Positions 11,563-60,510 of a stretch of DNA of 64,000 bases are shown here, piece by piece. The translations under genes were made by a program, and so were the position numbers. Source of the DNA: an uncultured Rickettsiales bacterium (GTDB lineage Bacteria; Pseudomonadota; Alphaproteobacteria; Rickettsiales; SXRF01); contig CAZNPA010000006.1 in assembly GCA_964575095.1 (NCBI GenBank), positions 8,361-72,360 of the forward strand. Direction: 5' to 3'. Within the stretch, counting starts at the first letter, position 1; every line of letters starts with the position of its first letter. The notes under the pieces are model-generated. The model made no database searches. It was not told the origin of the DNA and saw only the letters and a program-made list of their open reading frames with translations.

Positions 11563-12084
11563 CTACTGCTGCTGCATCGCGGCGTGGTGCATCATCAGCG
11601 CGATGCGCGCGTCGCGGACTTTGAGGGCTTCAAGCTCGGCCTTGCCCATCAAATTCGCCAGCGAGATTTGTACGAAGTCGAGGAAGATGACCATCACGCG
11701 TTCAATCTGACGCTGGATTTTGGTGACGATGGCGTCGGCGATATTGGCGGCGTTCTTGCCGGCGGCGCGCACCTGTGTACGATATTCATGAATGGCGGTA
11801 TAAATGCGGCGCAGCGCCGCCTCGATGTGCGATTTGCTGGCGCGGTTTTTCGCTTTCGGTTTAGTGCTTTCGGCAATCAATATAAATTCTTCGGTCAGCA
11901 CGTCGGTCGCTTCGCCGATCTCATGGATCAGCGGCTCGACCAATTGCAATTGCAGATCAGGATCGGCGGTCAGCTTGCTTTCCGCAGTGTCAACCAGCTC
12001 GCCGGCAAGATCGTATAGCGCTGCGATCTCGTTGTAGCGCTGCTCCAGTTCTTCGGTGCTGGAATGTTTTTTCTCTACCGTCAT
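11563..12084 (-). CDS. Hypothetical helical protein (orphan operon, gene 1)
   Basis: 173 aa, predicted all-helical with heptad-like E/L/A-rich segments. GAGGGA lies upstream. Confidence 0.55.
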   Translation of the reverse strand: MTVEKKHSSTEELEQRYNEIAALYDLAGELVDTAESKLTADPDLQLQLVEPLIHEIGEATDVLTEEFILIAESTKPKAKNRASKSHIEAALRRIYTAIHEYRTQVRAAGKNAANIADAIVTKIQRQIERVMVIFLDFVQISLANLMGKAELEALKVRDARIALMMHHAAMQQQ

Positions 12085-12620
12085 AATCTTTTTATATCCC
12101 TCGAAATTATTACCGCCGCATGCGGCGTGTTACTATGTTGTTAATTATTGTAACCCAAAGTAATAATTTTTGTATGACAGTTTTATGACATTTGTATGCG
12201 GCATGAATACCGCATTTTCAATGGATTAGCTGACACGTCGCCGCAAAAACAGTCAGAACAGGACTTTCTCCGGCGATTTTCCTTAAGAATGCGGATTAAG
12301 AATGCGGGTGCTGGTGCGATTCCGAATAATCCATCCAGATCACTTTGATGACTTCGAGCAGACTGAACATATGTGAAACTCCTCCATTGTCAGCATTAGC
12401 AGGTAAATATTAAGGGGTGATTAACGCGCAACGCAGCGCGCCAGATACCCCCGATTTGGGCAAAAAATGTGTCATTTTTGCCCACATTTAACCTCGCTTT
12501 TTTGGCATTTAACCCCAGTTTTGCGTCGTTTTGCCACGCCCACTCCGCGCCCCGCCCCGCCTCTATAGAGCGCCGCATTTTTTATTTTACTACAGGGAGA
12601 AATGCCCCGGAAGGGGGAAA

Positions 12621-15168
<2,548 letters not shown>

Positions 15169-15197
15169 TGTCTTAATTATAGCCTTGCGCCGCACCT

Positions 15198-16334
15198 ATG
15201 GCAAAGAACAAAAAACACTACGCTTTCCACCAGCGGCTTGCCCGCTGGTATGAAGCGAACGGCCGCAAGACATTGCCGTGGCGCACGACGCGCGACCCTT
15301 ACGCCATCTATGTCAGCGAAATCATGCTGCAGCAGACGCAGGTCAAGACCGTGCAGGAGCGCTATTATTTCCAATTCCTGAAGCGTTTCCCGACGTTAGA
15401 AGCTCTGGCGGCGGCAAAACGTCAGGATGTGCTCAAAGCCTGGCAGGGGCTGGGGTATTATAACCGCGCCGTGAATTTGCATGAAGCGGCGAAGCAGATA
15501 ACCGGGATTCGGGATTGGGGATTAGGGATTGGGGAAAGGCAGAAGAGGAATATTCTTCAAACCCGAAGCCCGAACCCCGAATCCTTAATCCCGACTTTAA
15601 TGTCCCTGCCCGGTATCGGCCGCAATACCGCCCATGCCGTGGCCGCGTTTGCCTACCACACGCCGGTGGCGGTGATGGAAGCCAACGTCAAGCGCGTGCT
15701 GTCGCGGATATTTGCGCTAGAAAACCCAACCGCGGATGCATTGTGGGAACATGCGACGGCGCTGCTCGATACCAAGAACCCGTTCGATTACAATCAGGCG
15801 ATGATGGATATCGGCGCGATGGTTTGCACCAAGCGCGCGCCAAGATGCAAAGAGTGCCCGGCGAATGCAATCTGTGCGGGCACGGCATCGCCTGAATCTT
15901 ATCCGGCGGCCAAGATCAAAAAAGCAACGCCGGTGCGAAAGAAGTATATTTTCCTGCTGCGCAATAACGCGGGAGAATATTTCGCCGAGCCGCGGAAGGG
16001 GAAATTCTTGAACGGCATGTATGGCTTTGTTGAAAAAAATATCTGCTCCCCCCTTGAGGGGGAGCGGGCGAGGACAAGCGATAGCGATGTTCGAGCCGTG
16101 GGGGGTAAGGTTTGCGCTTCGCGCAACACCCCTCTCCCTAACCATCTCCCTCAAGGGGAGAGGGAATATTTAGGCGCCATCCGTCAGCAATATTCGCATT
16201 TTACGCTGGAGGCGGAGGTGTATCTTCAAAAAGCGCAAGGCAGCGGCAAGGATTGGCACTCCTTTTCAAAGCTAAAAAAGTTTCCATTCTCTATGGCAGA
16301 ATTAAAAATCTTGAAGTTACTGGAAGCGGCATGA
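15198..16334 (+). CDS. mutY: A/G-specific adenine DNA glycosylase carrying two in-frame palindromic insertions
   Basis: Contains LPWRTTRDPYAIYVSEIMLQQTQV, the HhH motif LPGIGRNTAHAV, the FeS cluster motif CTKRAPRCKECPANAIC and a C-terminal NUDIX-like domain. Confidence 0.9.
   Translation: MAKNKKHYAFHQRLARWYEANGRKTLPWRTTRDPYAIYVSEIMLQQTQVKTVQERYYFQFLKRFPTLEALAAAKRQDVLKAWQGLGYYNRAVNLHEAAKQITGIRDWGLGIGERQKRNILQTRSPNPESLIPTLMSLPGIGRNTAHAVAAFAYHTPVAVMEANVKRVLSRIFALENPTADALWEHATALLDTKNPFDYNQAMMDIGAMVCTKRAPRCKECPANAICAGTASPESYPAAKIKKATPVRKKYIFLLRNNAGEYFAEPRKGKFLNGMYGFVEKNICSPLEGERARTSDSDVRAVGGKVCASRNTPLPNHLPQGEREYLGAIRQQYSHFTLEAEVYLQKAQGSGKDWHSFSKLKKFPFSMAELKILKLLEAA
15502..15594. repeat. Imperfect palindrome with GGGATTN heptad periodicity, inside mutY
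   Basis: CCGGGATTCGGGATTGGGGATTAGGGATTGGGG ... CCCGAAGCCCGAACCCCGAATCCTTAATCCCGA. Translated in-frame it gives GIRDWGLGIGERQKRNILQTRSPNPESL. Confidence 0.75.
16045..16163. repeat. Nested-palindrome element, copy 2 (in-frame inside mutY)
   Basis: GCTCCCCCCTTGAGGGGGAGCGGGCGAG ... GAGCCGTGGGGGGTAAGG ... CTCCCTCAAGGGGAGAG. Read in-frame it gives SPLEGERARTSDSDVRAVGGKVCASRNTPLPNHLPQGER. Confidence 0.85.
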
Positions 16335-28461: not shown

Positions 28462-29876
28462 AACCCAAACCTTTTTTTAGCTTCCGCGATGGATTTCTTA
28501 ACATTGGCCGGCGCCGTGCCGCCATGGCTCGTGCGGCTTTTTACCGAATCGGCCACCGTAAGCACCGAAAGCGCGCCTTGATTGATTTTTGGCTCAACCG
28601 ATTGCAGCTCTTTCAAAGATAAATTTTTGAGCGGTTTCTTTTTCGATTCGGCCAGCGCCACGATTTTCGCCGTGATGTGATGCGCATCGCGGAAGGGCAT
28701 GTTAAGCTCGCGCGCCAGCCAGTCGGCCAGGTCGGTGGCGGTGGAATATGCGGCACCGGCGGCGGCTTCCATGCGTTTTTCGTCGGCGGTGAAATCCCGC
28801 ACCATGCCAGTCATGGCGGAAAGGCAAATCGCCAGGCTATCCGCCGTATCGAAAATCGGCTCCTTATCTTCCTGCATGTCTTTATTATAAGCCAGCGGCA
28901 GCGCCTTCATCACCGTCATCAGCGTAATTAAATTACCAAACATGCGGCCGGATTTGGCGCGCACCAGCTCGGCGGCGTCGGGATTTTTCTTCTGCGGCAT
29001 GATCGAGCTTCCCGTCGACCACGCGTCGGAAAAATGAATGAAGCCAAATTGAGCGCTCGACCACAAAACCATTTCCTCCGCCAAGCGCGAAAGATGCACG
29101 GCAGCGATTGAAGCGACCGAGAGAAACTCAAGCGCGAAATCGCGCGCGCTTACGGCATCGAGCGAGTTGGCCATGGGGCGATCGAAACCCAGCTCCTCGG
29201 CGGTAAAATGCCGGTCGATGGGAAACGACGTTCCGGCAAGCGCTGCCGCACCCAGCGGCGATTCGTTGAGGCGTTTTCTGGCGTCAGCAATGCGCGAGCG
29301 GTCGCGGCCGAACATTTCGACATACGCCATCAGGTGATGCCCCAACGTCACCGGCTGCGCGGTTTGCAGATGCGTGAATCCCGGCATTATGGTGTCGGCG
29401 TGTTCGCCAGCGCGTTTTAGGAGCGCCTGCTGCAGGTCTTTCGTTAATTCGCCCAATACATCGAGCGCATCGCGCACATAAAGCCGAACGTCGGTAGCGA
29501 CTTGATCGTTACGCGAGCGCGCGGTGTGAAGCCTTCCCGCCGCCGCGCCGATTTTATCTTTCAAGGCCGATTCGATATTCATGTGAATATCTTCAAGATT
29601 CGCTTTGAATTGGAACTTGCCGGTTTCGATTTCTTTTAAAATCGCCTGCAGGCCGGAGATGATGGCTTTGGCATCGCTATCCGAAATGATTTTCTGCTTG
29701 GCGAGCATTTTCGCATGCGCGATGGAGCCGCGGATATCCTGCCGGTAAAGCCGCTTGTCAAACGCGATGGATGCGTTAATCTCGGCCAGCGCTTTTGACG
29801 GCGCGCCGCTAAACGCTCCACCCCACATCGGGTTGGCGTTCTTATCGGGATGTTTGGAGCTAGCCATATGAGGCAT
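28458..29876 (-). CDS. argH: Argininosuccinate lyase
   Basis: Contains [27 protein letters not shown] and [12 protein letters not shown]. The exact start is uncertain (29876 or 29867). Confidence 0.95.
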
Positions 29877-30341
29877 ATAAATACATGGATTTGCTGCCTT
29901 TTGGCAAGCACGATGCTGCTGGCGGCACCCGCTGGCGCGCAGGAAAGCGTAAAAATTAAGACGGTCGCCGCCGTCGCCATGCTAAAGACCGCCGGCCATA
30001 AGCTCACCATCCTGCATTTGTGGGCCACCTGGTGCGTGCCGTGCGTCGCCGAACTGCCTGATCTGGATGAATTTGCTAAGGCACATCCCGACCTTGGTTT
30101 CATAGCGCTTTCGGAAGATATGAACTTGGAGAAGGTCAAGGATTTCTTTACCGCGCATAAAATCACCGCTTTAACACCGGCGCTCGACGAGAAGATGACC
30201 ATGTTCCAGAAAGCCAAAGTCGTCGGATTGCCCACCACCCTCTTCATCGATGCCAATGGCCGGATGTTCGCCCGCGCCGACGGCCCGCTCGACTGGAAGA
30301 GTAAAGACGTCGCCGATTTTATTGAGCAGCACCTCAAATGA
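29868..30341 (+). CDS. TlpA-like periplasmic thiol:disulfide oxidoreductase
   Basis: Signal peptide, then WATWCVPC (CxxC) in a thioredoxin fold. Start chosen at MRHINTW. Confidence 0.8.
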
Positions 30342-30994
30342 GCGTGCTCGAAGATATCGAAGTCTGGCCGGCGTCGCAGCGCATCGAAGCGGCGGGCGAC
30401 CCGATGATCGGCCTCACGCGATTCGCTGATGCCGAGTCGTATCAGGCCACGCTGCGTGACACGATTCTGAGATTGGAGCGCAGCTCTTCGTATAAAGAAC
30501 AACTGGCGCGCGGCAGCTGCGGCACCAAGGTGCATCATATCGACACCTGGAAATGCCCGGCGGCGCAGCTCTTAAACCAACGCGCCGTAGCGCTGTTCAA
30601 ACACATGCTCAGAACCGAAAATGCGTTCGTCGATGCCAGCTGGGGCAATATTTACAGGAGCGGCGATTACTGCGTGCCACACAGCCACATCCGAGCACAA
30701 GCCGGCGTTGTTTATTTACTCGATGCCGGCGACGTTGACGAAAAAGATATCTTGGGCGCCAAATTTTATATCGCCGATCCGCGCGTCGCGTATTGCTGCC
30801 AGCACCATCCCGGCCACATGACGCGCCTGCTCATCCCCGATATGAAACCCGGCACGATGATTATTTTTCCGGGACAAGTCATGCACGGCGTCAATCCCTA
30901 TGTCGGCGCAAGGCCGCGTCTCACGCTATCGTGGAATATCGGCAGCGAGGCTATATCTGGCGATCCCCGCGCGACGTTCGACGGGAAGAAATGA
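30338..30994 (+). CDS. Putative 2OG-Fe(II) oxygenase-like protein (TIGR02466-like)
   Basis: 218 aa with PHSH...AGVVYL and FPGQVMHGVNP resembling that family. ATGA overlap with the tlpA-like gene. Confidence 0.5.
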   Translation: MSVLEDIEVWPASQRIEAAGDPMIGLTRFADAESYQATLRDTILRLERSSSYKEQLARGSCGTKVHHIDTWKCPAAQLLNQRAVALFKHMLRTENAFVDASWGNIYRSGDYCVPHSHIRAQAGVVYLLDAGDVDEKDILGAKFYIADPRVAYCCQHHPGHMTRLLIPDMKPGTMIIFPGQVMHGVNPYVGARPRLTLSWNIGSEAISGDPRATFDGKK

Positions 30995-31940: not shown

Positions 31941-33533
31941 TCACGCCGCCAAATTCTCCTTAGCCAATACTCGCCTAATCAGCTTCGCCGTTTCCGCTTT
32001 GCCGTAAAGCGCGACAAACGAGCCCATGCGCGGGCCTTGCGGTTGCCCCAGCAGCGTTTCGTACATTGTCGAAAACCAGCCTTTGAGCTCTTTGAACGGA
32101 TGACGTTTGCCGATTTCGTAGATTTCGGTTTGCAGCGTTTCGGCGGTGACATCGGCCGGCGCTTTTTCGAGATACTCGGCGAGCTCGGCGAGCGCCTTGG
32201 TTTCCATCTCGTCCGGGAAGCGGAATTTTTTGGTCGGCTTCACGAAGTCGATATAATAATTCACTGCGCCGTTCACCAGCTCATCGAGGAACGGGTGCGT
32301 GGCCGGTGAAAACTGCGGTTGGTAGCTGGTGATAAATCCCCACAGCACTTTCGGATCTTCGGTGTTGGCGACACCGGCCAGATTGAGCAGCAGATTGAAT
32401 GACGGAATCCCTTCCGGCTTGGGCGGCTTGCTAGAATGGACATGCCACACGGGATTATTCAGCCGCGCCGCCGCATCTTCCTTCTCGAATTTTTCGAGGA
32501 AGGTTTGGTAATCGTCCGTCGCGCGCGGGATGACGTCGAAATAAAGCCGCTTGGCCGTGCGCGGCTTGTTGTACATGTAATAGGCGAGGCTTTCCTTGGG
32601 CGCATAACGCAGCCACTGCTCGATCGAAATACCGTTGCCTTTCGACTTGGAAATTTTCTTGCCCTCTTCGTCCAAAAACATTTCATAGACGAAACCTTCC
32701 GGCGGCTTGCCACCCAACACTTCGCAAATGCCGTTATAAAGCGGCGCCGAGGGCTGGTGGTCCTTGCCGAACATCTCGTAATCGACGTCGAGCGCCGCCC
32801 AGCGCATGCCGAAATCCGGCTTCCACTGCAGTTTGCAATGACCGCCGGTGACCGGCACGGTGGTTTCCGTTCCGTCTTCGTCTTTAAAAGTAATCGTTCC
32901 CGCTTTGAGATCGCGCGCGGTGACCGGCACCTGCAACACTTTCCCCGTCTTGGGCGAAATCGGAAGGAACGGGCTATAGGTGCTGGCGCGTTCGTCGCCG
33001 AGCGTAGGAATCATCAGCGCCATGATGTCGTCGTATTTTTCAAGACACTTGAGCAGCGTTTTGTCGTAGACGCCTTTTTTATAGTTCTCGGTCGAGCTAT
33101 GGAATTCGTACTCAAAACCATAATGGTCGAGAAAGCCGCAGAGCCGCGCGTTCATGTGCGCGCCGTAGCTTTCGTGCGTGCCGAACGGGTCGGGAATGGC
33201 GGTTAAGGGCTTATCCATGTGCGAGGCCACCATTTCTTTATTCGGAACATTGTCCGGCACTTTGCGCAGGCCGTCCATGTCGTCGGAGATGCAAAACATT
33301 TTGGTGGGAATGTCGGAGAGCGTTTCAAACGCGTGGCGCACCAATGTCGTCCGGAATACTTCCATGAACGTGCCGATGTGCGGCAGGCCCGATGGGCCGT
33401 AGCCGGTCTCGAACAGCGCGTAGCCTTTTTTCGGCGCGCCGCTTTTGAAGCGCTCGACGAGCTTCCGCGCTTCCTCAAACGGCCAGGCGTTGCTTTTTGT
33501 AGCCAATTCTTTGATAGTTTCCATAGGGGCCAT
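31941..33533 (-). CDS. lysK: Lysine--tRNA ligase, class I
   Basis: 530 aa with GYGPSGLPHIGTFMEV (HIGH-like), KISKSKGNG (KMSKS) and the N-terminal WPFEEARKL typical of class I LysRS. Confidence 0.93.
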   Translation of the reverse strand: MAPMETIKELATKSNAWPFEEARKLVERFKSGAPKKGYALFETGYGPSGLPHIGTFMEVFRTTLVRHAFETLSDIPTKMFCISDDMDGLRKVPDNVPNKEMVASHMDKPLTAIPDPFGTHESYGAHMNARLCGFLDHYGFEYEFHSSTENYKKGVYDKTLLKCLEKYDDIMALMIPTLGDERASTYSPFLPISPKTGKVLQVPVTARDLKAGTITFKDEDGTETTVPVTGGHCKLQWKPDFGMRWAALDVDYEMFGKDHQPSAPLYNGICEVLGGKPPEGFVYEMFLDEEGKKISKSKGNGISIEQWLRYAPKESLAYYMYNKPRTAKRLYFDVIPRATDDYQTFLEKFEKEDAAARLNNPVWHVHSSKPPKPEGIPSFNLLLNLAGVANTEDPKVLWGFITSYQPQFSPATHPFLDELVNGAVNYYIDFVKPTKKFRFPDEMETKALAELAEYLEKAPADVTAETLQTEIYEIGKRHPFKELKGWFSTMYETLLGQPQGPRMGSFVALYGKAETAKLIRRVLAKENLAA

Positions 33534-33554: not shown

Positions 33555-35732
33555 TTAATCAACCCGCACATGGCGTTTGCGCCATTGTTTGTAGAAGTCG
33601 CGGCTTAGGGTTAAATCGGGGTATTGACGCAGGGTTGGCGTGAAATGATAGGGGTCGGGCTTGCCGTTTTCGGCCAATGTGTGCTGGCGGAAGGCCTCGT
33701 CTTCGGCGCTGTGCAGAAAACAGACCAGTACATAACGCTCGCCTTTGGCGACGGGCAGCGCCTCGTGCAGCGTCGCGCCGGAAAAAGCGATGGCGCCGCC
33801 GGCGGGCGGGCGGTAGATGTCGCGGCCGTATTCGGGGAAGACCAGTCCGCCGCCTTCATAATCATCGTTCAAGTGCACGGTAGCGGCGACGCGGCGGTAA
33901 CCGAGGTTGCTCTCGAAATTATCGCGGTGCTGCCTGAAGAACCCGCCCTTCTCGCCCGAATACATGCCGATTTTATAGGTCTCGCGGTGCGTGACTTCGA
34001 AGCCGAATATTTTCTGCACCTCAGGAAAAAAGCTGCGCGAGAGCTTATCGTCAAGCTCAGCCAATAACTCGCCGCCGACGATATGGTCGGTGCGCACTTT
34101 GTTCTGCGGCTGGTAGGCGATGCCGGAACCAACGCTGCCTTCGAACGTATAACCACCTTTGAATGTTTCGATGCATTTTCTACATTGCTCCGGCGTCAGC
34201 ACGTTGGGAACCATCAGCGCCGGCGCCGTAGAGGTAATGATTTTCGGCCGGGCATGTTCGCGTTGATATTCCACGACAATCACTCGCGTTTCCTCGGCGA
34301 TGTCGCGCGCCAGCTGGATGGCGCCGGGACCGGTGTGACGCCGCACGATGCGAAGATCGGGATCGAGCAGGTAACCCGCCGCCATGCCGGGCATAAGGCC
34401 GAAGGCGCGCGCGATGCGGCGCTCCGGATCCGCCGACAGCAGATGCGGGATGGCATGGATTTTTTTCAGCGCCAATAATTGCTCCATCGTGGCATCGAGA
34501 ATAAATAATTGCCGCGCATCGGTGGGGTGCTGTTGCATCTCGCGGAAAAACGCCAGCAAGAATTCGATATTATAGGCGGGCAGAAAAAACAGCAGAGAGT
34601 GCCGCCCGCCATTAAGCTCGATGCTCTGGCGTTTGCCTTCGGTGTTTTCGGCAATGAAGAGCGGCACGAAATCCCCGGCTTCGAGCATGGCCGGTACGGG
34701 TACGGCCGGCGGCTGGCTATTTAGTTCCGGCGGCTGGATGGGCGTACTGCGGTATTTTTTTAAATCCTTGATGAACCAGCCGCGCAATGCTTTTTCCGAC
34801 GCAATCTTGCGCGTAAAATCGATGCCGCAATACTCTTCGTATTGTTGGAGCGTGCGCGCGATCCCCAACCCGTAGGTTTTCAGTTCGCTGGTGACGGCAA
34901 GATCATCCGACGCACGGTAGCCGGAAAGATGATTGAAGCGCCTAAGGCCGCGGTCGCGCAGGAAATCCACCTTTCGCCGGTCATTCTGGCGCAGGTCCTG
35001 CCAGTGCAGCGGACGGGCGCTTTGTTCGCCGGTATTGTAATAATGATAGAGGAATTGCGTGCGGCTGCTGAAAATATCCCAGCCGTGCGTATAAAGTCGC
35101 ATGGCGTAGCAGATCTCTTCCTGGTCGAAATAAAGATAGGGATCGTACGGCACCTCTTCGATGATGTTCGAGCGCGCGAACACAAATCCACCGGCGATGA
35201 AAGCGCCGTTCAGCGGCTGTTCCGGAATGCGCTCCAGCGCCTCGCCCTGCCCGCGGATGTTGCCGTCGGGCGTGAAGGGCTTGACGCGACGCACGGTCGG
35301 CCACACGGGTTGCTGCAAATTATTAGGCGGCGTGTAGGAGGCAGGGCTGCACGACAAAACCGATTTTTCGGCATCGCATGCCGCAAGCTCGTTGATCATC
35401 TGTGCATCCCAGCCGGGCACGAAGCGCATGTGCGAATCGATCTGCAGTGCATATTCCTCGCCGTCCCAAAGCAACTGAGATTGGCGGCGCGCCCAGCACA
35501 CGCCCTCAGACTCGCGCCAGTCGACGGGAAAGATGCGCACCTGATCCGGCCGGGTCACGATTTCAAAACAGTGCTTATCCAGCTCGTGGTCGAACTGCCA
35601 GCAGATGCCGACCGTGACGAGTTCCGGATGCAGGGCGCGGTCGAATAAATCTTTGACCGTCCACTGGCATTCCGGATCGCGGTAGCTGGCAATGTTGACG
35701 AATATGCGCGGCGCGGCGGCGCTCATATACAT
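33555..35732 (-). CDS. Tri-modular protein: GT60/Gnt1-like GlcNAc-transferase + redoxin-like module + prolyl-4-hydroxylase-type 2OG-Fe(II) oxygenase
   Basis: N-terminus: IFVNIASYRDPECQWT, QIDSHMRFVPGWD, GAFIAGGFVFAR. Middle: GDFVPLF...HSLLFFLPAYN. C-terminus: FFRQHRDN (HxD), ATLHEALPV (distal His), KGERYVLVCFL. Confidence 0.7.
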   Translation of the reverse strand: MYMSAAAPRIFVNIASYRDPECQWTVKDLFDRALHPELVTVGICWQFDHELDKHCFEIVTRPDQVRIFPVDWRESEGVCWARRQSQLLWDGEEYALQIDSHMRFVPGWDAQMINELAACDAEKSVLSCSPASYTPPNNLQQPVWPTVRRVKPFTPDGNIRGQGEALERIPEQPLNGAFIAGGFVFARSNIIEEVPYDPYLYFDQEEICYAMRLYTHGWDIFSSRTQFLYHYYNTGEQSARPLHWQDLRQNDRRKVDFLRDRGLRRFNHLSGYRASDDLAVTSELKTYGLGIARTLQQYEEYCGIDFTRKIASEKALRGWFIKDLKKYRSTPIQPPELNSQPPAVPVPAMLEAGDFVPLFIAENTEGKRQSIELNGGRHSLLFFLPAYNIEFLLAFFREMQQHPTDARQLFILDATMEQLLALKKIHAIPHLLSADPERRIARAFGLMPGMAAGYLLDPDLRIVRRHTGPGAIQLARDIAEETRVIVVEYQREHARPKIITSTAPALMVPNVLTPEQCRKCIETFKGGYTFEGSVGSGIAYQPQNKVRTDHIVGGELLAELDDKLSRSFFPEVQKIFGFEVTHRETYKIGMYSGEKGGFFRQHRDNFESNLGYRRVAATVHLNDDYEGGGLVFPEYGRDIYRPPAGGAIAFSGATLHEALPVAKGERYVLVCFLHSAEDEAFRQHTLAENGKPDPYHFTPTLRQYPDLTLSRDFYKQWRKRHVRVD

Positions 35733-35790: not shown

Positions 35791-36660
35791 TTACAGCCCG
35801 GCGACGCTGCGGCTCAGGTATTTATGCGGGTCGATGGCGTCTTTGCCCTCGCGCACGGAGAAGTGCAGCTGCGGCTCCTTGACGTTGCCGGTCGATCCGA
35901 CATAGCCGATGATGTCGCCCTGCTTCACGCGCTCATATTTATCGACGGTGGCGCGTGAGAGGTGCGCGTACGACGTGCTCTTGTCACCGGCGTGTTTTAC
36001 CAGCACCATGTTGCCGTAGCCCTGCAGGTCGTTGCCGGAATAGACGACTTCACCGTCGGCCGCCGCCCATACCGGTTCGCCTTCACCGGCGGCGATGTTG
36101 ATGCCGTCATTGGCCTTGCCGCCGCCCTTGGGCCCGAAACCTGAAATCACTTTGCTGTTGCTGACCGGCCAGATGAAATTATCCGATGGCGCCTGCTGGT
36201 CGCTGGAAAGTTTCACCGGCTTGGTGACGATCTTGGTCGCGCCGTCGTCGCTGACGAATTCCTGACGCGGCCTACCCGTCCACGGGTTGATTTTTTGAAT
36301 ATTGGAAGAGGCCTGCTGGTCTTTTATGCTACCGGCGCTGGGCGATAACGTGCCGGGATTACTATTTACATTGGAAGCTACCACCTGCGGTTTTTGCGCC
36401 TGCGGTTGCGGCGGCGTGTTTAAATCATTGATCGCGATCGGCGCGACGCTGGCATATTCATCGGTCGAAAGTTTCACCGGCTCGGACGGTTGCGCCGTGT
36501 ATTGGAACTGGTTGCTGCTGCCGGAGAAAAACGCGACCTGCGTGGAAGCGCGGCCGTACACATTCTGGCCTTTCATGTCGACATGGGCCGCCGGTTGCGT
36601 GCAGGCGGCGGTCAAAAACAGGGAGACGGTGGCGGTAGCGCGAACGATGGAACGCGGCAT
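35791..36660 (-). CDS. M23 (LytM-domain) peptidase lipoprotein, NlpD-like
   Basis: Lipobox LTAAC, a low-complexity linker, and a C-terminal LytM core with HAGDKSTSYAHLS, GYVGSTGNVKEPQLHFSVREG. Confidence 0.85.
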   Translation of the reverse strand: MPRSIVRATATVSLFLTAACTQPAAHVDMKGQNVYGRASTQVAFFSGSSNQFQYTAQPSEPVKLSTDEYASVAPIAINDLNTPPQPQAQKPQVVASNVNSNPGTLSPSAGSIKDQQASSNIQKINPWTGRPRQEFVSDDGATKIVTKPVKLSSDQQAPSDNFIWPVSNSKVISGFGPKGGGKANDGINIAAGEGEPVWAAADGEVVYSGNDLQGYGNMVLVKHAGDKSTSYAHLSRATVDKYERVKQGDIIGYVGSTGNVKEPQLHFSVREGKDAIDPHKYLSRSVAGL

Positions 36661-45732: not shown

Positions 45733-46022
45733 TAAAGCAAATCGTCACAATCAATTCATAAACCTGTCATCAAACTGTCATATTGCCTTGCTATAGTGGG
45801 AATCAGATAGGCGGGCATGGGAAAAATTACCACGTCACACCTCAGGAAGAAAGTGGCTGAAAGATGGCCTGCCATCCGAAGCCTCTTGCGAAGGATGGTT
45901 AAAATTGTCACAAATGATTCACACAATTTTAACTAATAATTAACTAAAATACTGTTAAAATTGAATCAGGTTAGAGATTACTAGTTGATATAAAACGATT
46001 TTTTAAACAAAAGGAGAAAGTT

Positions 46023-46298
46023 ATGAAAACTAATACATTAAAGAAAACCACCCTCCTCGCCGCCGTAGCGGTGATGGGTATGGCAGCGATGCCGGTGGCG
46101 GATGCAAGTGCTGCAATCCAAGCCATCGCAAGTACTAATATCAAGCAGTTCTGTAAGAATCTTGGTGACGGAATTGCAGGTGATTTTGGCGCGGCAGGAA
46201 CCAATCATAGTGGTGGCGGCGGCGGCACTATCACCTTAGTAAACGGTGTCTGGACCTTTACTCCGACTCCCGGACCGCATCCTTGCCCGTTCAAATAA
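46023..46298 (+). CDS. Small secreted protein (about 60-aa mature part, 2 Cys, Gly5 tract)
   Basis: AAGGAGAAAG SD and a Sec signal MKTNTLKKTTLLAAVAVMGMAAMPVADASA. AT-rich context. No recognised family. Confidence 0.6.
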   Translation: MKTNTLKKTTLLAAVAVMGMAAMPVADASAAIQAIASTNIKQFCKNLGDGIAGDFGAAGTNHSGGGGGTITLVNGVWTFTPTPGPHPCPFK

Positions 46299-46329
46299 AG
46301 AAATTGAAAAACTTGGAAAGGTATTTTTT

Positions 46330-46593
46330 ATGAATAAAATTGGAAAACATAGTGTAGGTCGCTATAAAAGAGCTTTTTTGGCTGCTGTTGCTGTCATGGG
46401 AATGTCTCTTATACCTTTAACTGATGGGCATGCAGCGAGAATCTATGTATCAAATCCAAATTTCTTGGATTTTTGTCGCGTCGGTTATAATGCGATTGTG
46501 GAGTGCGCAACCCATATAAACCCCGCGGCGGGAGGCACATGTTCTTGGGGGTGGAATGAGAAAGAGGGTTATTGGATAATGCTGTGCTATTAA
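46330..46593 (+). CDS. Small secreted protein (about 52-aa mature part, 4 Cys, Trp-rich)
   Basis: Its signal peptide shares LAAVAVMGM with the previous ORF. Start chosen at MNKIGKH. Followed by an intrinsic terminator. Confidence 0.55.
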   Translation: MNKIGKHSVGRYKRAFLAAVAVMGMSLIPLTDGHAARIYVSNPNFLDFCRVGYNAIVECATHINPAAGGTCSWGWNEKEGYWIMLCY

Positions 46594-46615
46594 GTTTTAT
46601 TAAATAAACCTCCAA

Positions 46616-46641
46616 CCCCCGCCTATTAGCGGGGGTTTTTT
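46616..46641 (+). terminator. Intrinsic terminator after the small-peptide genes
   Basis: CCCCCGC-CTATTA-GCGGGGG-TTTTTT. Confidence 0.8.
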
Positions 46642-46653
46642 AACCAATCGCTA

Positions 46654-47721
46654 TCAGGGAAATGAAGAAAATCTTTCTTCCGAACGAGTGATTTTCTGTA
46701 CTGATCCAAGCCTACGAAAATAAACACGTACCTTCTTTACTGGAATTTCCACCAGAAATACGATGGGGGTCGCTACCACTAATGTAAAAGCAAGAGCCGC
46801 AAAAAATAATTCGTGTCCCTGTTTTTGTTCTATCTGCAAAATATATTTTGCCAATGCCCCTACGGGCCAATGAATTAAAAACATTGGGTAGGCAATATCG
46901 GCACAGAATTGCTCGATCTTCGACATCGCCTTAGCTTTATTACACTCGTAAATGCGCATCACCGTCAAGGCAAAGAACACTACCGAAAAATGCACGATGG
47001 GTGCTTGCCATTCAGGGTGCCGCCTAACAGTGTCAAGCATATTGGGCACATACACAACAACATTAGCCAAACACAATAAAAATAATGTACCGAAAGGAAA
47101 ATAATTTTTCCATGTATGACGATAATGATAAGCGACGCTGCCAAGAAAAAAAGCAGGCGCGGTACCATAAATAGTGTAATAAAACTTATAAAATGTAGCT
47201 CCCTGCAAATAAAGTATTGCTGTCATGATTATTGAAATGACAAGACCAGCTAAACTTAACCGCCGACTGTAGCCTGTCAATAATCCAATGGTGAGGTAAT
47301 AAACGATTTCTGTGCTTAAGCTCCATGCTGTCGGAAGCAAAGCGAGTTTTGGCACTTTTGATGCAAATGAACTTAAGCCGAGAATGGTAAACTGTGGCAA
47401 CCATATTTGCCAAGTAGATGGCATAACCATTGATGGCCAAAGTTGTTTTGTTGTTTCAGGAATCCATTCAATAATCAGAACGCAAATGAGCAAGCACACC
47501 CAATAGGTTGGATATACGCGTACAAAACGATTGATAAGAAAATACGCTTTTCCACGGGCACTATTCTCGTACACTTCGCACATCATACGAGTGATCAAAA
47601 AACCGGAAAGCGTAAATAAACCAATAACCGCTGTATAATGCTGCCAGAAACTTCTGATCCCCGTGAAATGGCCTTGTATTACCGCCACGACGAGAAAAAA
47701 ACGTAAATAACCGAGTCCCAT
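46654..47721 (-). CDS. Acyltransferase family 3 (OafA/YrhL-like) membrane protein
   Basis: 355 aa, about 10 TM helices, with an N-terminal LRFFLVVAVIQGHF segment typical of acyltransferase_3. AT-rich. Confidence 0.65.
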   Translation of the reverse strand: MGLGYLRFFLVVAVIQGHFTGIRSFWQHYTAVIGLFTLSGFLITRMMCEVYENSARGKAYFLINRFVRVYPTYWVCLLICVLIIEWIPETTKQLWPSMVMPSTWQIWLPQFTILGLSSFASKVPKLALLPTAWSLSTEIVYYLTIGLLTGYSRRLSLAGLVISIIMTAILYLQGATFYKFYYTIYGTAPAFFLGSVAYHYRHTWKNYFPFGTLFLLCLANVVVYVPNMLDTVRRHPEWQAPIVHFSVVFFALTVMRIYECNKAKAMSKIEQFCADIAYPMFLIHWPVGALAKYILQIEQKQGHELFFAALAFTLVVATPIVFLVEIPVKKVRVYFRRLGSVQKITRSEERFSSFP

Positions 47722-47752
47722 TTTCTAAACATGCGAGAAACGGATAGCGCTG

Positions 47753-49183
47753 TCAAGCTCGGGGCTTGCCGCTCCGGAAATGCGATACCCGCCGCATCGC
47801 ATCCTCCAGCAGCATGGCAAAGAAGATAAGGTAAAAAGGTTCGGTGCCCCAGCGCATTCTTTCCTGTTCGCCTTTATTGAAAGCGCAAGAGGCAACAAAC
47901 ATCGCCGCAGCAACAAACACGGTTATCATAATGAACGGCCGGCGTTCCCTCGCATACCCGCGCGGCAACCATGCCAGCAAAAACACCAGCAACGGGATCG
48001 CCGCATATAACATGATGCTCCCCCTGCCCATCCAGATTTTCACCGTGCGCGGCAAGTCCCGGTATTCGGTGTCAAAAGCGCGCAACTTGCGCAGCGAGAA
48101 CCGGCAACACACATGCGCGATGGAAGGATACGCCGCCTTATCCATCATTTTACCGAATATTTTCTGTGCGTATGACCACGGATAATGACGCATCACGGTG
48201 AGTGAATCCGCCATATCCTGTTTGCCGCTTTCGATCAGCGCCTGGTAATTAAAATTGTTGCGCCCGTCCGGCTTGAAGCGCCCAAGCGACGGGTGGCCGT
48301 AATCCGGGCTTTGTTTCCCGACCTGCGTCCACTCTTCGCGCACGCGCATGGCTTTATCAAAATTAAAAATAACAGGAAAATAGGCCGATACTTCGCCTTG
48401 TGCCTGTAATATTTTGATGTCTGAAGGCGGCGCTGCCGCCACCGCTACCCCGGCAAGATTGGCGCCCATCCACGATGTCGCACCCAGAAAACCGTAAAGC
48501 GCCAAGTTTTTAAGGTAGATTATCGCTATGGGAGACAGTGCAGCCACCATGGCGGTGGTATGCCTTATGTTCCATGAGCGCCGATAAAACATCCATAACA
48601 CGCCTCCCATTCCCATAAAAAGTGTCAGATGCCAATGCGGACGCAGAAGCCCAAGCAGGCAGCAGGAAATAAATATTCCCACCAAGGTGCCTGACGTGAT
48701 GCGCGAATCCCGCTGCAGTCTGGCCAGATAGTACGCCATCATGCAGCATAGTGAGAATTCAAGATGAGTCGTATAGGCCCAGTTCATGTAAAGATTGAAT
48801 GTGGGAAACAAGCATAGCCATACACAAACGAATAGGCGTAAACCCAACCGCACCCCGATCAGGCGCAAGGCCGCATTCAAACTGACGACCGCCGCCAGGC
48901 CGACCCCGAAATATATCCACTCCAATATCAAACGATAATTTTCCGGCGACGCTTTAAAGACGACGCCTATCAGCAGATTCATCAGCGGCGGCTGGGAATG
49001 CTGATAAAAAAGAGAGGAGAACAGATCGGTCGTCAGCCATTGCGGGCTCAAATATTGCCAGAAAGTGAACACCGGCATGGCGGTAAACCGGGAATCTATC
49101 CCATATTTATACGCAAGCTGTGAACAAAGGTAGAGCGCCACCAACCATATATTTTCGCTATGCCGTCTGTACCACGCCTGCAT
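47753..49183 (-). CDS. Large polytopic membrane protein, possible GT-C-fold glycosyltransferase (ArnT/PMT-like)
   Basis: 476 aa with many N-terminal TM helices, a roughly 130-aa soluble loop, then two or three C-terminal TM helices. The family call rests on topology only. Confidence 0.35.
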   Translation of the reverse strand: MQAWYRRHSENIWLVALYLCSQLAYKYGIDSRFTAMPVFTFWQYLSPQWLTTDLFSSLFYQHSQPPLMNLLIGVVFKASPENYRLILEWIYFGVGLAAVVSLNAALRLIGVRLGLRLFVCVWLCLFPTFNLYMNWAYTTHLEFSLCCMMAYYLARLQRDSRITSGTLVGIFISCCLLGLLRPHWHLTLFMGMGGVLWMFYRRSWNIRHTTAMVAALSPIAIIYLKNLALYGFLGATSWMGANLAGVAVAAAPPSDIKILQAQGEVSAYFPVIFNFDKAMRVREEWTQVGKQSPDYGHPSLGRFKPDGRNNFNYQALIESGKQDMADSLTVMRHYPWSYAQKIFGKMMDKAAYPSIAHVCCRFSLRKLRAFDTEYRDLPRTVKIWMGRGSIMLYAAIPLLVFLLAWLPRGYARERRPFIMITVFVAAAMFVASCAFNKGEQERMRWGTEPFYLIFFAMLLEDAMRRVSHFRSGKPRA

Positions 49184-49267: not shown

Positions 49268-49352
49268 GCCCAGGTGGCGGAATTGGTAGACGCACTAGCT
49301 TCAGGTGCTAGCGCCGCGAGGTGTAAGAGTTCGAGTCTCTTCCTGGGCACCA
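49268..49352 (+). tRNA. tRNA-Leu (anticodon CAG)
   Basis: GCCCAGGTGGCGGAATTGGTAGACGCACTAGCTTCAGGTGCTAGCGCCGCGAGGTGTAAGAGTTCGAGTCTCTTCCTGGGCACCA. It has a long variable arm and an encoded CCA. Confidence 0.9.
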
Positions 49353-58418: not shown

Positions 58419-59396
58419 CTATTTGTAACAAACGCTTTTGACCGCATCGATGATGTGGCTTGCCTGCGGCAGCGCCAGCTTCTCGAGGTTAGCGGCGTAG
58501 GGCAGCGGCACGTCGAGCCCCGCCACGCGTGCGACCGGCGCGTCGAGGTAATCGAAGGCGTGCTCCATAATCTGCGAAGAAATTTCCGCGCCGATGCCCA
58601 TGGGCGCCCAGCCCTCTTCCACCGACACGCAGCGGTTGGTTTTCTTGACCGACTCGACGATGGTTTCAGTATCGAGCGGGCGCAGCGTGCGCAGGTTTAT
58701 CACTTCGGCGCTAATCCCTTCTTGCGCTAACTGTTCCGCTGCTTGCAACGCTTTACCGACCATGATCGAAAAGGCGACAATGGTGACGTCGGTGCCCTCG
58801 CGTTCGATATGCGCCTTGCCGATGGGCAAAATGAAATCGCTGTCGTCCGGCACGTCAAAACTTGTTCCGTACATGAGTTCGTTTTCGAGGAATACAATCG
58901 GATTCGGGTCGCGGATGGCGGCTTTCAATAATCCTTTTGCGTCCGCCGACGAATAGGGCGCGACGACTTTGAGGCCCGGCACGTGCGCATACCAGCTGCC
59001 GTAGCACTGCGAGTGCTGCGCCGCGACGCGCGACGCCGCGCCGTTGGGGCCGCGAAATACAATCGGGCAGCCGATCTGACCGCCGGACATGTAGCGCTGT
59101 TTGGCGCTGGTCACGATATGGTCGAGCGCCTGCATGGCGAAGTTCCAGGTCATGAATTCGACGATGGGCTTCAAGCCCATCATCGACGCGCCTACCCCTA
59201 AGCCGCAGAAACCATATTCCGTGATCGGCGTATCGACAACGCGCTTGGGCCCGAACTCCTGCAACAGCCCTTGCGTCACCTTGTACGCGCCCTGGTATTC
59301 GGCGACTTCCTCGCCCATGACGAAGACCTCGCCGTCGCGGCGCATCTCCTCGGCCATGGCGTCTCTTAGGGCGTCTCTTACGGTTAGTGTAGCCAC
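58419..59396 (-). CDS. pdhB: Pyruvate dehydrogenase E1 beta subunit
   Basis: 325 aa with [24 protein letters not shown] and PVVFLENE-like [11 protein letters not shown]. Confidence 0.95.
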
Positions 59397-59409
59397 AAAC
59401 TATCCTTTT

Positions 59410-59467
59410 CTTGTCACCCCTGCGAAAGCAGGGGTCTTAAGATTCCTGCTTACGCAGGAATGACAAG
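59410..59467. repeat. Composite two-hairpin cruciform of the 24-nt repeat family
   Basis: CTTGTCA-CCCCTGC-GAAA-GCAGGGG-TCTTAAGA-TTCCTGC-TTAC-GCAGGAA-TGACAAG, with perfect two-fold symmetry. Confidence 0.85.
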
Positions 59468-59472
59468 TAAAA

Positions 59473-59775
59473 TTACATCCAGTTATGTATATCTTCATAT
59501 AAATCTTTCCATTCCGGGTTCACTTTCTCGATCAATTCAATTTTCCAATCCCGTTTCCAACGCTTCAGGCATTTTTCTCTGTGGATGGCTTGGTCAATGT
59601 AATCAAATGCTTCTACATAAACCAACCGTTTAACGTGATATGTCTTACTGAATCCCTCTATCAATCCTTCTTTATGTTCTACGGCTCTTCTCGGTAAATC
59701 GTTAGTCACTCCAATATAAAGCACCCCGTATTTTTTACTTGCGATAATATAAACATAATATCTGTGTTTTCTCAT
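59473..59775 (-). CDS. GIY-YIG nuclease family protein (small URI-domain type)
   Basis: 100 aa with YYVYIIASKKYGVLYIGVTNDLPRRAVEH and REKCLKRWKR. AT-rich. Flanked by hairpin repeats on both sides. Confidence 0.85.
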   Translation of the reverse strand: MRKHRYYVYIIASKKYGVLYIGVTNDLPRRAVEHKEGLIEGFSKTYHVKRLVYVEAFDYIDQAIHREKCLKRWKRDWKIELIEKVNPEWKDLYEDIHNWM

Positions 59776-59783
59776 GGTTTTTT

Positions 59784-59807
59784 GTCATTCCTGCGAAAGC
59801 AGGAATC
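59784..59807. repeat. 24-nt hairpin repeat
   Basis: GTCATTCCTGCGAAAGCAGGAATC. Confidence 0.8.
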
Positions 59808-59822
59808 TAGTTTCTATCATAC

Positions 59823-60104
59823 TTATGGTAAGCACCTAATTACCCATGTATGTACCTGCCGGTAGGAACTATCGGGAAGCAAGGTGGTATGCTCAGATAT
59901 TTTCTTGAATCCATTATGACACCGTTCTAAAGCATCAGTACTCATCGCATTAAGCGCTATGTTTGGGTTATTATTTACCGTATTATCCGTAGCACTGATG
60001 GTGTAAGTATTATTGCTGGTCTTTTCACCAGTAACGATAGGGTCACACCCAGTGACAATGCCAGCCAATATCATTAGCAATGAGATTTTAGTAAAAATTT
60101 TCAT
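59823..60104 (-). CDS. Small lipoprotein, unknown function
   Basis: 93 aa with lipobox AGIVTGC and an Asn/Thr-rich mature part containing 2 Cys. AT-rich. Confidence 0.55.
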   Translation of the reverse strand: MKIFTKISLLMILAGIVTGCDPIVTGEKTSNNTYTISATDNTVNNNPNIALNAMSTDALERCHNGFKKISEHTTLLPDSSYRQVHTWVIRCLP

Positions 60105-60125
60105 GATGTTTCCGTTGTACTCGAT

Positions 60126-60455
60126 TTAGATGTTTAGCTCTAATGTTACTCTCGGATGTTCTCTATCTTTCGGTGCCCAATAATTTTTAACTTTGGCATC
60201 AATTTTTTCGCCAGCATCTAAACGCTTTGACAGGTTTTTAGCGGTACTGGCCTTAATAAAACCTATTTGTTTTCTGCCTATTCCAAGCAATCCAAAAAAT
60301 ACGGGAATGGCAAGATAAACCTCGATGGCATTCTCATCAAATTTATTATTCGGATTACGCTCAAGAAATACAGTCATTCCTTCACGGCAGTATCGCTTGA
60401 TAATTTCTGCCCGGTGCTCAAATCCAGTACCTGCAACAATAGCGCTTCGTGACAT
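60126..60455 (-). CDS. Stand-alone HIRAN-domain protein
   Basis: 109 aa. IVAGTGFEHRAEIIKRYCREGMTVFLERNPNNKFDENAIEVY...IGFIKASTAKNLSKRLDAG fits the HIRAN pattern (G..y......l..G..v.L.RePdN.yD.nAi.V....g..iGyi). Confidence 0.7.
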   Translation of the reverse strand: MSRSAIVAGTGFEHRAEIIKRYCREGMTVFLERNPNNKFDENAIEVYLAIPVFFGLLGIGRKQIGFIKASTAKNLSKRLDAGEKIDAKVKNYWAPKDREHPRVTLELNI

Positions 60456-60482
60456 TAAAAAATCTTTCTTTCTCTAAGTCTA

Positions 60483-60506
60483 GATCCCTGCTTTCGCAGG
60501 GATGAC
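60483..60506. repeat. 24-nt hairpin repeat, inverted orientation
   Basis: GATCCCTGCTTTCGCAGGGATGAC, the reverse complement of the GTCATCCCTGCGAAAGCAGGGATC consensus. It lies 4 nt from the pdhA stop. Confidence 0.8.
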
Positions 60507-60510
60507 AAAT

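Follow-up and report, generated by a model that had tools for sequence, protein, structure and literature searches.

A bacterial fusion of a GT60 glycosyltransferase, a cysteine-free peroxiredoxin-like domain and a 2OG/Fe(II) oxygenase, with a probable role in decorating proline-rich exported proteins

Hydroxyproline (Hyp)-linked glycans are regarded as eukaryotic, being known from the cell-wall proteins of plants and algae and from Skp1 of protists. Prolyl hydroxylation in bacteria is, to our knowledge, known only for EF-Tu and for collagen-like proteins, and there without sugars. In Haemophilus influenzae, a cytoplasmic GT41 N-glycosyltransferase, HMW1C, is encoded beside the TpsA-TpsB pair HMW1A-HMW1B and modifies Asn residues of the exoprotein before its secretion. 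Human LH3 (PLOD3) and mimivirus L230 are single-chain collagen lysyl hydroxylase/glycosyltransferases, and in their chemistry a residue of a repeat protein is hydroxylated and then glycosylated. In Dictyostelium and Toxoplasma, a cytoplasmic 2-oxoglutarate (2OG)-dependent prolyl hydroxylase, PhyA (P4H1), acts on Skp1 and is followed by Gnt1, an alpha-N-acetylglucosamine (GlcNAc) transferase of CAZy family GT60 (PMC6939170). GT60 also includes the Thr-directed polypeptide alpha-GlcNAc transferase of Trypanosoma cruzi (PMC6939170). Here we examined a 64,000-nucleotide (nt) stretch of DNA from an uncultured Rickettsiales bacterium (contig CAZNPA010000006.1, hereafter the window), and find that one of its genes encodes a GT60 glycosyltransferase (GT) domain, a peroxiredoxin (Prx)-like domain and a 2OG/Fe(II) oxygenase domain in a single polypeptide. 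The fusion is real, recurrent and uncharacterised, a variation on the hydroxylase-plus-glycosyltransferase theme of PhyA/Gnt1 and LH3/L230, and it is probably part of a bacterial system, not studied so far, for decorating Pro-rich proteins ahead of their export.

An earlier reading made from the DNA letters alone (the sequence-only reading) had described an open reading frame (ORF) at 33555-35732; this minus-strand ORF of 725 amino acids (aa) is exactly as described, and all the motifs quoted from it lie where they were placed in the translation. The identical protein in the public gene call starts two codons later, and we favour this second ATG because a GAGGA box sits 9 nt before it. The gene and its parts are as follows:

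33555..35732, minus strand: whole fusion ORF, 725 aa, stop codon included in the interval
35726, minus strand: second ATG, the likely true start, giving a product of 723 aa
34728..35711, minus strand: GT60 (PF11397) GT-A domain, residues about 8-335, from Pfam and the structural model
35430..35438, minus strand: D99-S-H101, the DxH metal/UDP-sugar motif (translates to DSH)
34248..34685, minus strand: Cys-free Prx-like domain of the BCP/PrxQ type, residues about 350-495, from a profile match and predicted to be non-catalytic
33663..34235, minus strand: 2OG/Fe(II) oxygenase (PF13640) double-stranded beta-helix, residues about 500-690, from Pfam and from sequence and fold matches in the PDB
33921..33929, minus strand: H602-R-D604, predicted to hold the first two iron ligands (translates to HRD)
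33735..33767, minus strand: H656, predicted third iron ligand, to R666, ten residues on and the predicted binder of the 2OG C5-carboxylate (translates to HEALPVAKGER)

Alignment A1 comprises 28 sequences, namely the fusion protein and 27 full-length homologues that are 35-58% identical to it, and we built an AlphaFold2 model from this alignment (mean predicted local distance difference test score, pLDDT, 89.1). The N-terminal domain is a GT60 member by family profile, matching PF11397 ('GlcNAc') with an E value of 1.2e-68 and 232.7 bits against a cut-off of 21, and it has a GT-A fold with the DxH/DxD-type motif. The conserved blocks are IFVNIASYRDPEC (residues 10-22), QIDSHMRF (97-104) and GAFIAGGFVFAR (176-187); D99 and H101 are invariant in all 28 sequences, as is H230. 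This part of the model has pLDDT >90, and its Foldseek matches are the catalytic domains of GT27 polypeptide GalNAc-transferases (ppGalNAc-T). The donor would most likely be UDP-GlcNAc and the linkage alpha, for which the GT7 (beta4GalT-like) neighbours of the homologue P0045 give an indirect hint. Among viral models, the best Foldseek matches are phage and giant-virus proteins named 'Glycosyltransferase, GlcNAc'; such GT60-like proteins occur in uncultured tailed phages, Megaviridae and Pandoravirus (BFVD A0A6J5NK11, A0A6J5R1Z4, S4W0H0 and others), with TM-scores to the GT domain of up to 0.85.

The C-terminal domain matches PF13640 (2OG-FeII_Oxy_3) with an E value of 3.8e-11 and carries an HxD...H triad on a double-stranded beta-helix, together with a basic residue roughly 10 places beyond the distal His; the corresponding motifs are QHRDN (residues 601-605), LHEALPV (655-661) and KGERYVLV (663-670). 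H602 and D604 are each conserved in 25 of the 28 aligned sequences, and H656 and R/K at position 666 each in 26; the triad is degenerate in three divergent members. The DxH site of the GT60 domain and the 2OG-oxygenase site are thus both complete. By sequence, the matches in the PDB are PiuC, Bacillus anthracis prolyl 4-hydroxylase (P4H) and LH3, the nearest being PiuC/PKHD-type proteins and the B. anthracis enzyme (E about 1e-5); by fold, they are PHD2, the Pseudomonas PPHD-EF-Tu complex (4iw3), PiuC, a chlorella-virus collagen P4H (vCPH) and the B. anthracis P4H (5hv0). The sequence-only reading had seen a P4H-type oxygenase. Its triad and its 2OG binder hold up, but by sequence the nearest relatives of the domain are of the PKHD/YbiX/PiuC type and the Bacillus P4H, not PhyA. 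The domain does not belong to the YbiX/PiuC PKHD equivalog (NCBIfam PRK05467), to which it scores at most 37.7 bits, the cut-off being 143. PPHD and the B. anthracis P4H are bacterial PF13640-type peptidyl-prolyl 4-hydroxylases that share the fold and match weakly in sequence, but they stand alone, without a glycosylation step, and their identity is only about 19-22%.

The middle domain is, judged from profile and model, a genuine peroxiredoxin fold that is catalytically dead. The match of the single sequence to PF00578 (AhpC-TSA) has an E value of 0.12, under the Pfam cut-off, but orthologues clear that cut-off with 28-31 bits, a profile of the 28 homologues finds BCP peroxiredoxins in the PDB (3drn, E 8.4e-11), and the Foldseek matches of this part of the model in the PDB are peroxiredoxins. 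The domain resembles BCP/PrxQ peroxiredoxins in both fold and sequence profile. Unlike them, it has Ile389 and Leu392 in place of the Thr and the peroxidatic Cys of the PxxxTxxC motif (here P385-AYN-I389-EF-L392), there is no cysteine anywhere in residues 303-516, and no Cys is conserved among the homologues; because of these replacements we regard it as a pseudo-peroxiredoxin. The sequence-only reading of a redoxin-like fold lacking an evident catalytic Cys (around GDFVPLF, residues 353-359, and LLFFLPAYN, 380-388) is therefore borne out. A peroxidase or redox role for the domain was considered and is ruled out, thiol peroxidase chemistry being impossible with no cysteine. Our best guess is a non-catalytic adaptor or substrate-binding role, and this Cys-less module deserves structural study.

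All three domain assignments and the catalytic-residue calls made beforehand were thus right: of the profile searches proposed for checking them, PF11397 and PF13640 are placed, PF00578 being below threshold for the single sequence, and the proposed comparison of an AlphaFold model by Foldseek returns peptidyl-prolyl hydroxylase (PPHD) and polypeptide-transferase folds. The protein is cytoplasmic, because it lacks a signal peptide and its hydrophobic stretches are all too short to form a membrane helix (maximum 19-aa hydropathy 1.43).

The closest architectural precedent, which the sequence-only reading had not mentioned, is LH3/L230, as judged from the model. In a whole-chain Foldseek search of the PDB, human LH3 (6te3) aligns over its full length (E 1.9e-12, 705 aligned columns), and megavirus L230-like lysyl hydroxylase/glycosyltransferases likewise align over the full length of the model (Megavirus K7YEL3). 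Like the fusion, LH3 and L230 are single chains with an N-terminal GT-A domain, a non-catalytic middle domain and a C-terminal PF13640-type oxygenase. Sequence identity to LH3 is only 12%, however, and LH3 acts on Lys in the lumen of the endoplasmic reticulum; its GT domain is of another family, and its middle domain is GT-like rather than peroxiredoxin-like. Sequence matches to LH3 are confined to the oxygenase domain, and common descent of the GT and accessory domains is not indicated. We therefore take the fusion to be an analogue of LH3/L230 and not a member, because its GT domain is GT60 and its middle domain Prx-like. The PhyA/Gnt1 pair shares with the fusion the combination of a 2OG-dependent hydroxylase and a GT60 transferase in the cytoplasm, but PhyA and Gnt1 are two separate proteins that modify one proline of one protein, and here there is one polypeptide with a pseudo-peroxiredoxin domain, an oxygenase of the PKHD/YbiX-like branch, likely targets in long repeat tracts of exported proteins, and a bacterial setting in which there is no Skp1.

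The fusion is not peculiar to this genome. A word-indexed search gave 711 relatives and a scan of one genome per GTDB species gave 314, and an exhaustive HMMER scan of 1.84 billion 50%-identity cluster representatives gave 6,655 matches at E<=1e-3, of which 1,268 reach E<=1e-30. It is mostly by way of the GT60 domain that these representatives match; among the top 150, some two dozen do so in one stretch across all three domains. The survey proposed beforehand thus finds the three-domain architecture to be recurrent, in tens of 50%-identity clusters. Related architectures are GT60 plus Prx-like (about 480 aa), GT60 plus P4H (about 600 aa) and Prx-like plus 2OG oxygenase alone (320-380 aa), such that the Prx-like module occurs with GT60 only, with the oxygenase only, and with both. 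Others combine GT60 with a methyltransferase, sometimes together with an APH kinase domain, or carry extra GT2 domains. The names of the relatives in their sources are automatic labels only ('GlcNAc-transferase family protein', 'YbiX/peroxiredoxin'), and full-text literature searches turned up no characterised bacterial GT60-oxygenase fusion, in agreement with the earlier statement that no such example was known; the empty result is no proof of absence. The stand-alone Prx-like plus 2OG homologues (in Emcibacter, Dongia and Thalassobaculum) have no conserved neighbour, and their contexts are uninformative. In a single case, a Dongia sp. (L082:585-2113), a gene for hemerythrin, an O2/iron-binding protein, comes 36 nt after that of the homologue (354 aa).

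The evidence that bears on the substrate comes from the genes beside these relatives. The ORFs of 78 loci were clustered, and Pro-rich tracts were sought in each of the six reading frames. In at least 17 of the 78 loci, a GT60-family gene adjoins one for an exported protein that bears long (X-Pro)n or Pro/Thr repeats. These 17 loci are not phylogenetically independent; in 11 of them the two genes are immediate neighbours. The GT60 domains of these relatives are 40-50% identical to that of the window. This family-wide link of GT60-family genes to exported (X-Pro)n proteins is new here, and it provides testable enzyme-substrate pairs, for example the GT60-P4H enzyme with the PTPEPTPA tract of its TpsA partner.

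The carrier proteins and their secretion routes are of six kinds. The first comprises RTX-like, mucin-type proteins in which TTEPPV, APVTTTE or APTDTP is repeated tens to hundreds of times and which also have GG-repeats and a ...DKIEW C-terminus; they are encoded directly upstream of GT60-methyltransferase genes in Azospirillum, Novispirillum, Rhodospirillaceae, Duganella and other Oxalobacteraceae. The second is a two-partner secretion (TPS) operon that encodes a GT60-P4H enzyme (605-627 aa), TpsB (ShlB/POTRA) and TpsA with PTPEPTPAPT tracts, and that is divergently paired with a three-domain homologue (L022, L027, L063, P0042/L087, P0051/L091). The logic of these operons is that of HMW1C, which differs in being a GT41 enzyme that acts on Asn without hydroxylation. 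The third kind consists of TadE-like proteins with TPAPTP tracts near GT60-Prx genes. The fourth is a protein that has a signal peptide and repeats of DPSSDPDT and DPTPDPDPVP; its gene belongs to a CsgG/TPR/Slam-like operon and lies directly upstream of the gene for a three-domain homologue (L017, P0038/L086). The fifth is an ORF directly downstream of the three-domain homologue P0028, whose first about 390 aa are PEPAPEPHPEP repeats almost without Ser or Thr, and which the public gene call has on the wrong strand. The sixth comprises incomplete tracts, PEPTPEPT and PPPSTTTVV, where contigs end. Thr/Pro-rich repeat proteins are also encoded beside GT60 genes that lack any hydroxylase. In an independent look-up of five more (near) three-domain homologues at about 40% identity, four have a repeat-protein neighbour (P0038, P0042, P0028 and P0051). 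The cluster that contains the fifth, P0045, has three GT7 (beta4GalT-like) genes, a GT2 gene and a methyltransferase gene, and the GT7 genes would fit with extension of a GlcNAc primer.

Several observations stand beside these loci. At L088:~12003-15500, plus strand, the public annotation has a minus-strand gene for a 392-aa 'RLRLRF...' protein; read on the plus strand, the DNA gives an uninterrupted PEPAPEPHPEP repeat that runs in frame into the downstream 749-aa gene, and a mis-called strand is likely to hide a Pro-rich repeat protein of >1,100 aa. In two TPS-type loci (L087:9092-9721 and L091:8356-8814), the three-domain gene is flanked by genes for a PAS/HD-GYP protein and for a LapG-like cysteine protease of the transglutaminase-like type (Peptidase_C93), which hints at a LapG/LapD-style control of adhesin release there. 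For the oxygenase of the two-domain enzyme in the TPS loci, the closest proteins are collagen, Bacillus and Chlamydomonas P4Hs; because the oxygenases of the co-occurring two-domain and three-domain enzymes thus sit in different branches (P4H-like versus PKHD/YbiX-like), the two may hydroxylate different positions or residues.

Taken with the domain content, this context leads us to a reading to which we give about an even chance: that the fusion is a cytoplasmic, bifunctional protein-modifying enzyme acting on Pro-rich tracts before export. The oxygenase would hydroxylate residues in (X-Pro)n or Pro-Thr tracts of export-bound proteins, and the Pro-rich neighbours of the relatives make proline the most likely target. 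The GT60 domain would add an N-acetylhexosamine (HexNAc), most likely alpha-GlcNAc from UDP-GlcNAc, to the same tracts, with either the new hydroxyproline (like Gnt1) or a nearby Thr/Ser (like the trypanosome enzyme) as the acceptor. The Prx-like domain may, as the accessory domain does in LH3, act as a spacer or hold the substrate without taking part in catalysis, and the modification would precede secretion, as with HMW1C on the TpsA adhesin HMW1. If true, this would be a new bacterial post-translational modification of surface and adhesin proteins. The sequence-only reading had proposed a protein target, with the Skp1 pathway as its precedent. A protein rather than a small molecule is indeed favoured by the repeat-protein neighbours of the relatives, but a Skp1-like single-site O2-sensing switch is unlikely, because the likely targets are long repeat tracts and because orthologues carry four GT60 domains.

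Several points weigh against this reading. The fusion gene lies amid housekeeping genes in the clade of the window, such that the substrate assignment rests on relatives at about 40% identity, and the 64-kb window holds no Pro/Thr-rich ORF in any frame. Stand-alone Prx-like plus 2OG homologues exist without GT60 and without Pro-rich neighbours. The oxygenase of the window is nearer to PKHD/YbiX/PiuC-type proteins, for which we found no substrate descriptions, than to proven P4Hs, and the packing of the domains is uncertain in the AlphaFold2 model (predicted template modelling score, pTM, 0.52).

The closest competitor concerns the acceptor. In it the two activities run in parallel: the GT60 domain makes mucin-type Thr/Ser-O-alpha-GlcNAc, the oxygenase separately hydroxylates Pro or another residue in the tract, and no Hyp-O-GlcNAc is formed. 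As a model of the chemistry, Thr-O-GlcNAc with separate Pro hydroxylation may be held equally live beside Hyp-O-GlcNAc, the product foreseen in the sequence-only reading, because GT60 has Thr-directed members (PMC6939170) and hydroxylase-less GT60s adjoin Thr/Pro repeats, here both the GT60-methyltransferase and the GT60-Prx fusions. The T. cruzi enzyme primes Thr-rich mucin repeats, much as bacterial GT60 genes adjoin the mucin-like TTEPPV and APVTTTE repeat proteins, but it is a type II membrane enzyme of the Golgi with no oxygenase partner. The GT fold is, in addition, nearest to the GT27 Thr/Ser GalNAc-transferases, and some bacterial GT60s must, as we read the gene contexts, use Thr/Ser, because oxygenase-free GT60 fusions adjoin Thr-rich repeats. 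On the other side, the PEPAPEPHPEP tract beside P0028 offers almost no Ser or Thr, and the repeated fusion of GT60 to an oxygenase, including in giant proteins with four GT60 and two oxygenase domains, suggests coupled, LH3-like chemistry. These two features would favour Hyp as the acceptor, and we consider a strictly parallel scheme possible but rather unlikely.

A bolder form of the preferred reading joins two claims. The family would be the first bacterial Hyp-O-glycosylation machinery, a single cytoplasmic enzyme turning (X-Pro)n tracts of adhesin-like exported proteins into (X-Hyp-O-GlcNAc)n rods like those of extensins and arabinogalactan proteins before secretion by TPS, type I (T1SS), Tad or CsgG-like routes, and the P4H-GT60 unit would be the prokaryotic source of the PhyA/Gnt1 Skp1 pathway. 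The two together are a tentative proposal, which we hold to be less likely than not and only a little more probable than the parallel scheme. The bacterial fusion also bears on the origin of the eukaryotic Skp1 modification enzymes.

The neighbourhood of the window gene raises a different possibility, that of a housekeeping target. Its immediate neighbours, named beforehand as class I LysRS and an M23 peptidase, are confirmed by Pfam (PF01921 and PF01551):

31941..33533, minus strand: class I lysyl-tRNA synthetase gene (lysS, PF01921), 21 nt downstream of the fusion with no terminator between
35791..36660, minus strand: M23 (NlpD-like) lipoprotein peptidase gene (PF01551), 58 nt upstream of the fusion; this adjacency is not conserved in relatives

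A scan found no terminator-like site between the fusion gene and lysS, and the two are probably co-transcribed; promoter-like and terminator-like sites around the fusion gene are not above those of shuffled sequence (1 versus 2.9 expected, and 12 versus 10.6). The closest relatives, at 52-57% identity, are in metagenome-assembled genomes (MAGs) of uncultured 'Rickettsiales'/Alphaproteobacteria, whose LysRS, argininosuccinate lyase and LysA are 70-77% identical to those of the window. In about 20 loci of this clade the order is the fusion, class I lysS, a HAD hydrolase gene, a TlpA-like thioredoxin gene, the argininosuccinate lyase gene, lysA and the HPRT gene, and the upstream side varies (M23/NlpD, a photolyase, a sulfotransferase-like gene or a GGDEF gene). 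We found no obvious substrate gene in the window or in the loci of its clade, and no second GT60 gene, second P4H-type gene or sulfotransferase remnant in the window.

A translation factor, a ribosomal protein or LysRS itself might accordingly be the target, with the fusion an O2/2OG-responsive regulator like PPHD on EF-Tu or PhyA/Gnt1 on Skp1. The tight linkage to lysS in about 20-21 loci while the upstream genes vary speaks for this, as does the overlap of the two genes by 4 nt in P0006, the nearest same-size homologue; so do the fold matches to the PPHD-EF-Tu complex and PHD2, and the stand-alone Prx-like plus 2OG homologues that lack repeat-protein neighbours. But the linkage occurs in a single clade only, where the entire block is syntenic, and it may be inherited order; four tandem GT60 domains better suit a repetitive, heavily glycosylated target; and the more distant three-domain homologues adjoin exported repeat proteins. 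We consider a housekeeping target improbable.

The tandem domains are a feature of the clade itself, in which most MAG orthologues are single ORFs of 1,700-2,450 aa (L005:5997-12092 and L013:3954-11312; also L002-L004, L008-L010, L014, L015 and L021). In these giants, four GT60 domains in tandem are accompanied by weak GT2 or GT1-like matches, the Prx-like domain, the PF13640 oxygenase and a second oxygenase (PF13661), and the window protein corresponds to their fourth GT60 (67-68% identical), Prx-like domain and first oxygenase (58% identical). An origin of the giants by fusion of the two-domain and three-domain gene types was considered and rejected, their C-terminal PF13661 domain having no BLAST similarity to the TPS-linked P4H domain. 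In one MAG (L003:3475-4965, minus strand), a 496-aa Pro-rich protein with C-terminal EF-hand motifs is encoded next to the giant fusion, between the M23 and sulfotransferase-like genes; it is the only Pro-rich candidate in the clade of the window. The sulfotransferase-like gene (L073:4853-5665, and at the equivalent spot in about 20 MAG loci) divergently adjoins the giant fusion; its product has a GMHRSGTS P-loop and matches PF13469 below the cut-off (E 6e-5), and the gene is absent from the window and from the P0006 locus.

Less probable still, and in our view very unlikely, is a non-protein substrate: a lipopolysaccharide (LPS) or other polysaccharide, a small molecule, or a nucleic acid that is hydroxylated and then glycosylated, as in base J or phage DNA. 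Genes for lptB, lptA, lptC and a KpsF-like protein do lie 1-4 kb upstream of the fusion, GT60-like proteins occur in tailed phages and giant viruses, and about 20 relatives have the sulfotransferase-like gene next door. Proximity to lpt genes is not a conserved feature, however, since in relatives surE-pcm-nlpD or other genes occupy that place; peptidyl hydroxylases are indicated by PF13640 and by the best structural matches, and polypeptide transferases by the GT fold; and the association with Pro-rich exported proteins recurs across all six kinds of carrier and secretion route. Finally, the window gene is hardly a decaying, functionless remnant of a giant orthologue: it does lack most of the giants' domains as well as the sulfotransferase-like neighbour, but its ORF is intact with all catalytic residues kept, and same-size homologues at 54-58% identity occur in several other genomes (P0006, P0007, P0009 and P0010).

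The window has some further features of note. On the plus strand at 29850-30994, the gene for a 163-aa TlpA-like thioredoxin/redoxin (PF13905/PF08534/PF00578), whose WCVPC motif is intact, shares 4 nt with a gene for a 218-aa PF13759 'putative 2OG-Fe(II) oxygenase', a second redoxin and oxygenase pairing only 2.6 kb from the fusion gene; the TlpA-like gene is kept at the same position in relatives, and the PF13759 gene apparently is not. At 58419-61515 on the minus strand, the genes for pyruvate dehydrogenase E1 alpha (PF00676) and E1 beta (PF02779/PF02780) are split by three small ORFs that encode a HIRAN-domain protein (109 aa), a 93-aa lipoprotein-like product and a GIY-YIG nuclease-domain protein (100 aa), which looks like a small mobile insertion inside the pdh operon. 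A low-GC island at 46000-48000 (0.44 versus about 0.56 elsewhere) contains an Acyl_transf_3 membrane acyltransferase gene and a pair of small ORFs that match nothing in Pfam, one of them with a signal-peptide-like N-terminus; the island may have been acquired horizontally. The only RNA genes in the window are two tRNAs, one of them a tRNA-Leu at 49268-49352.

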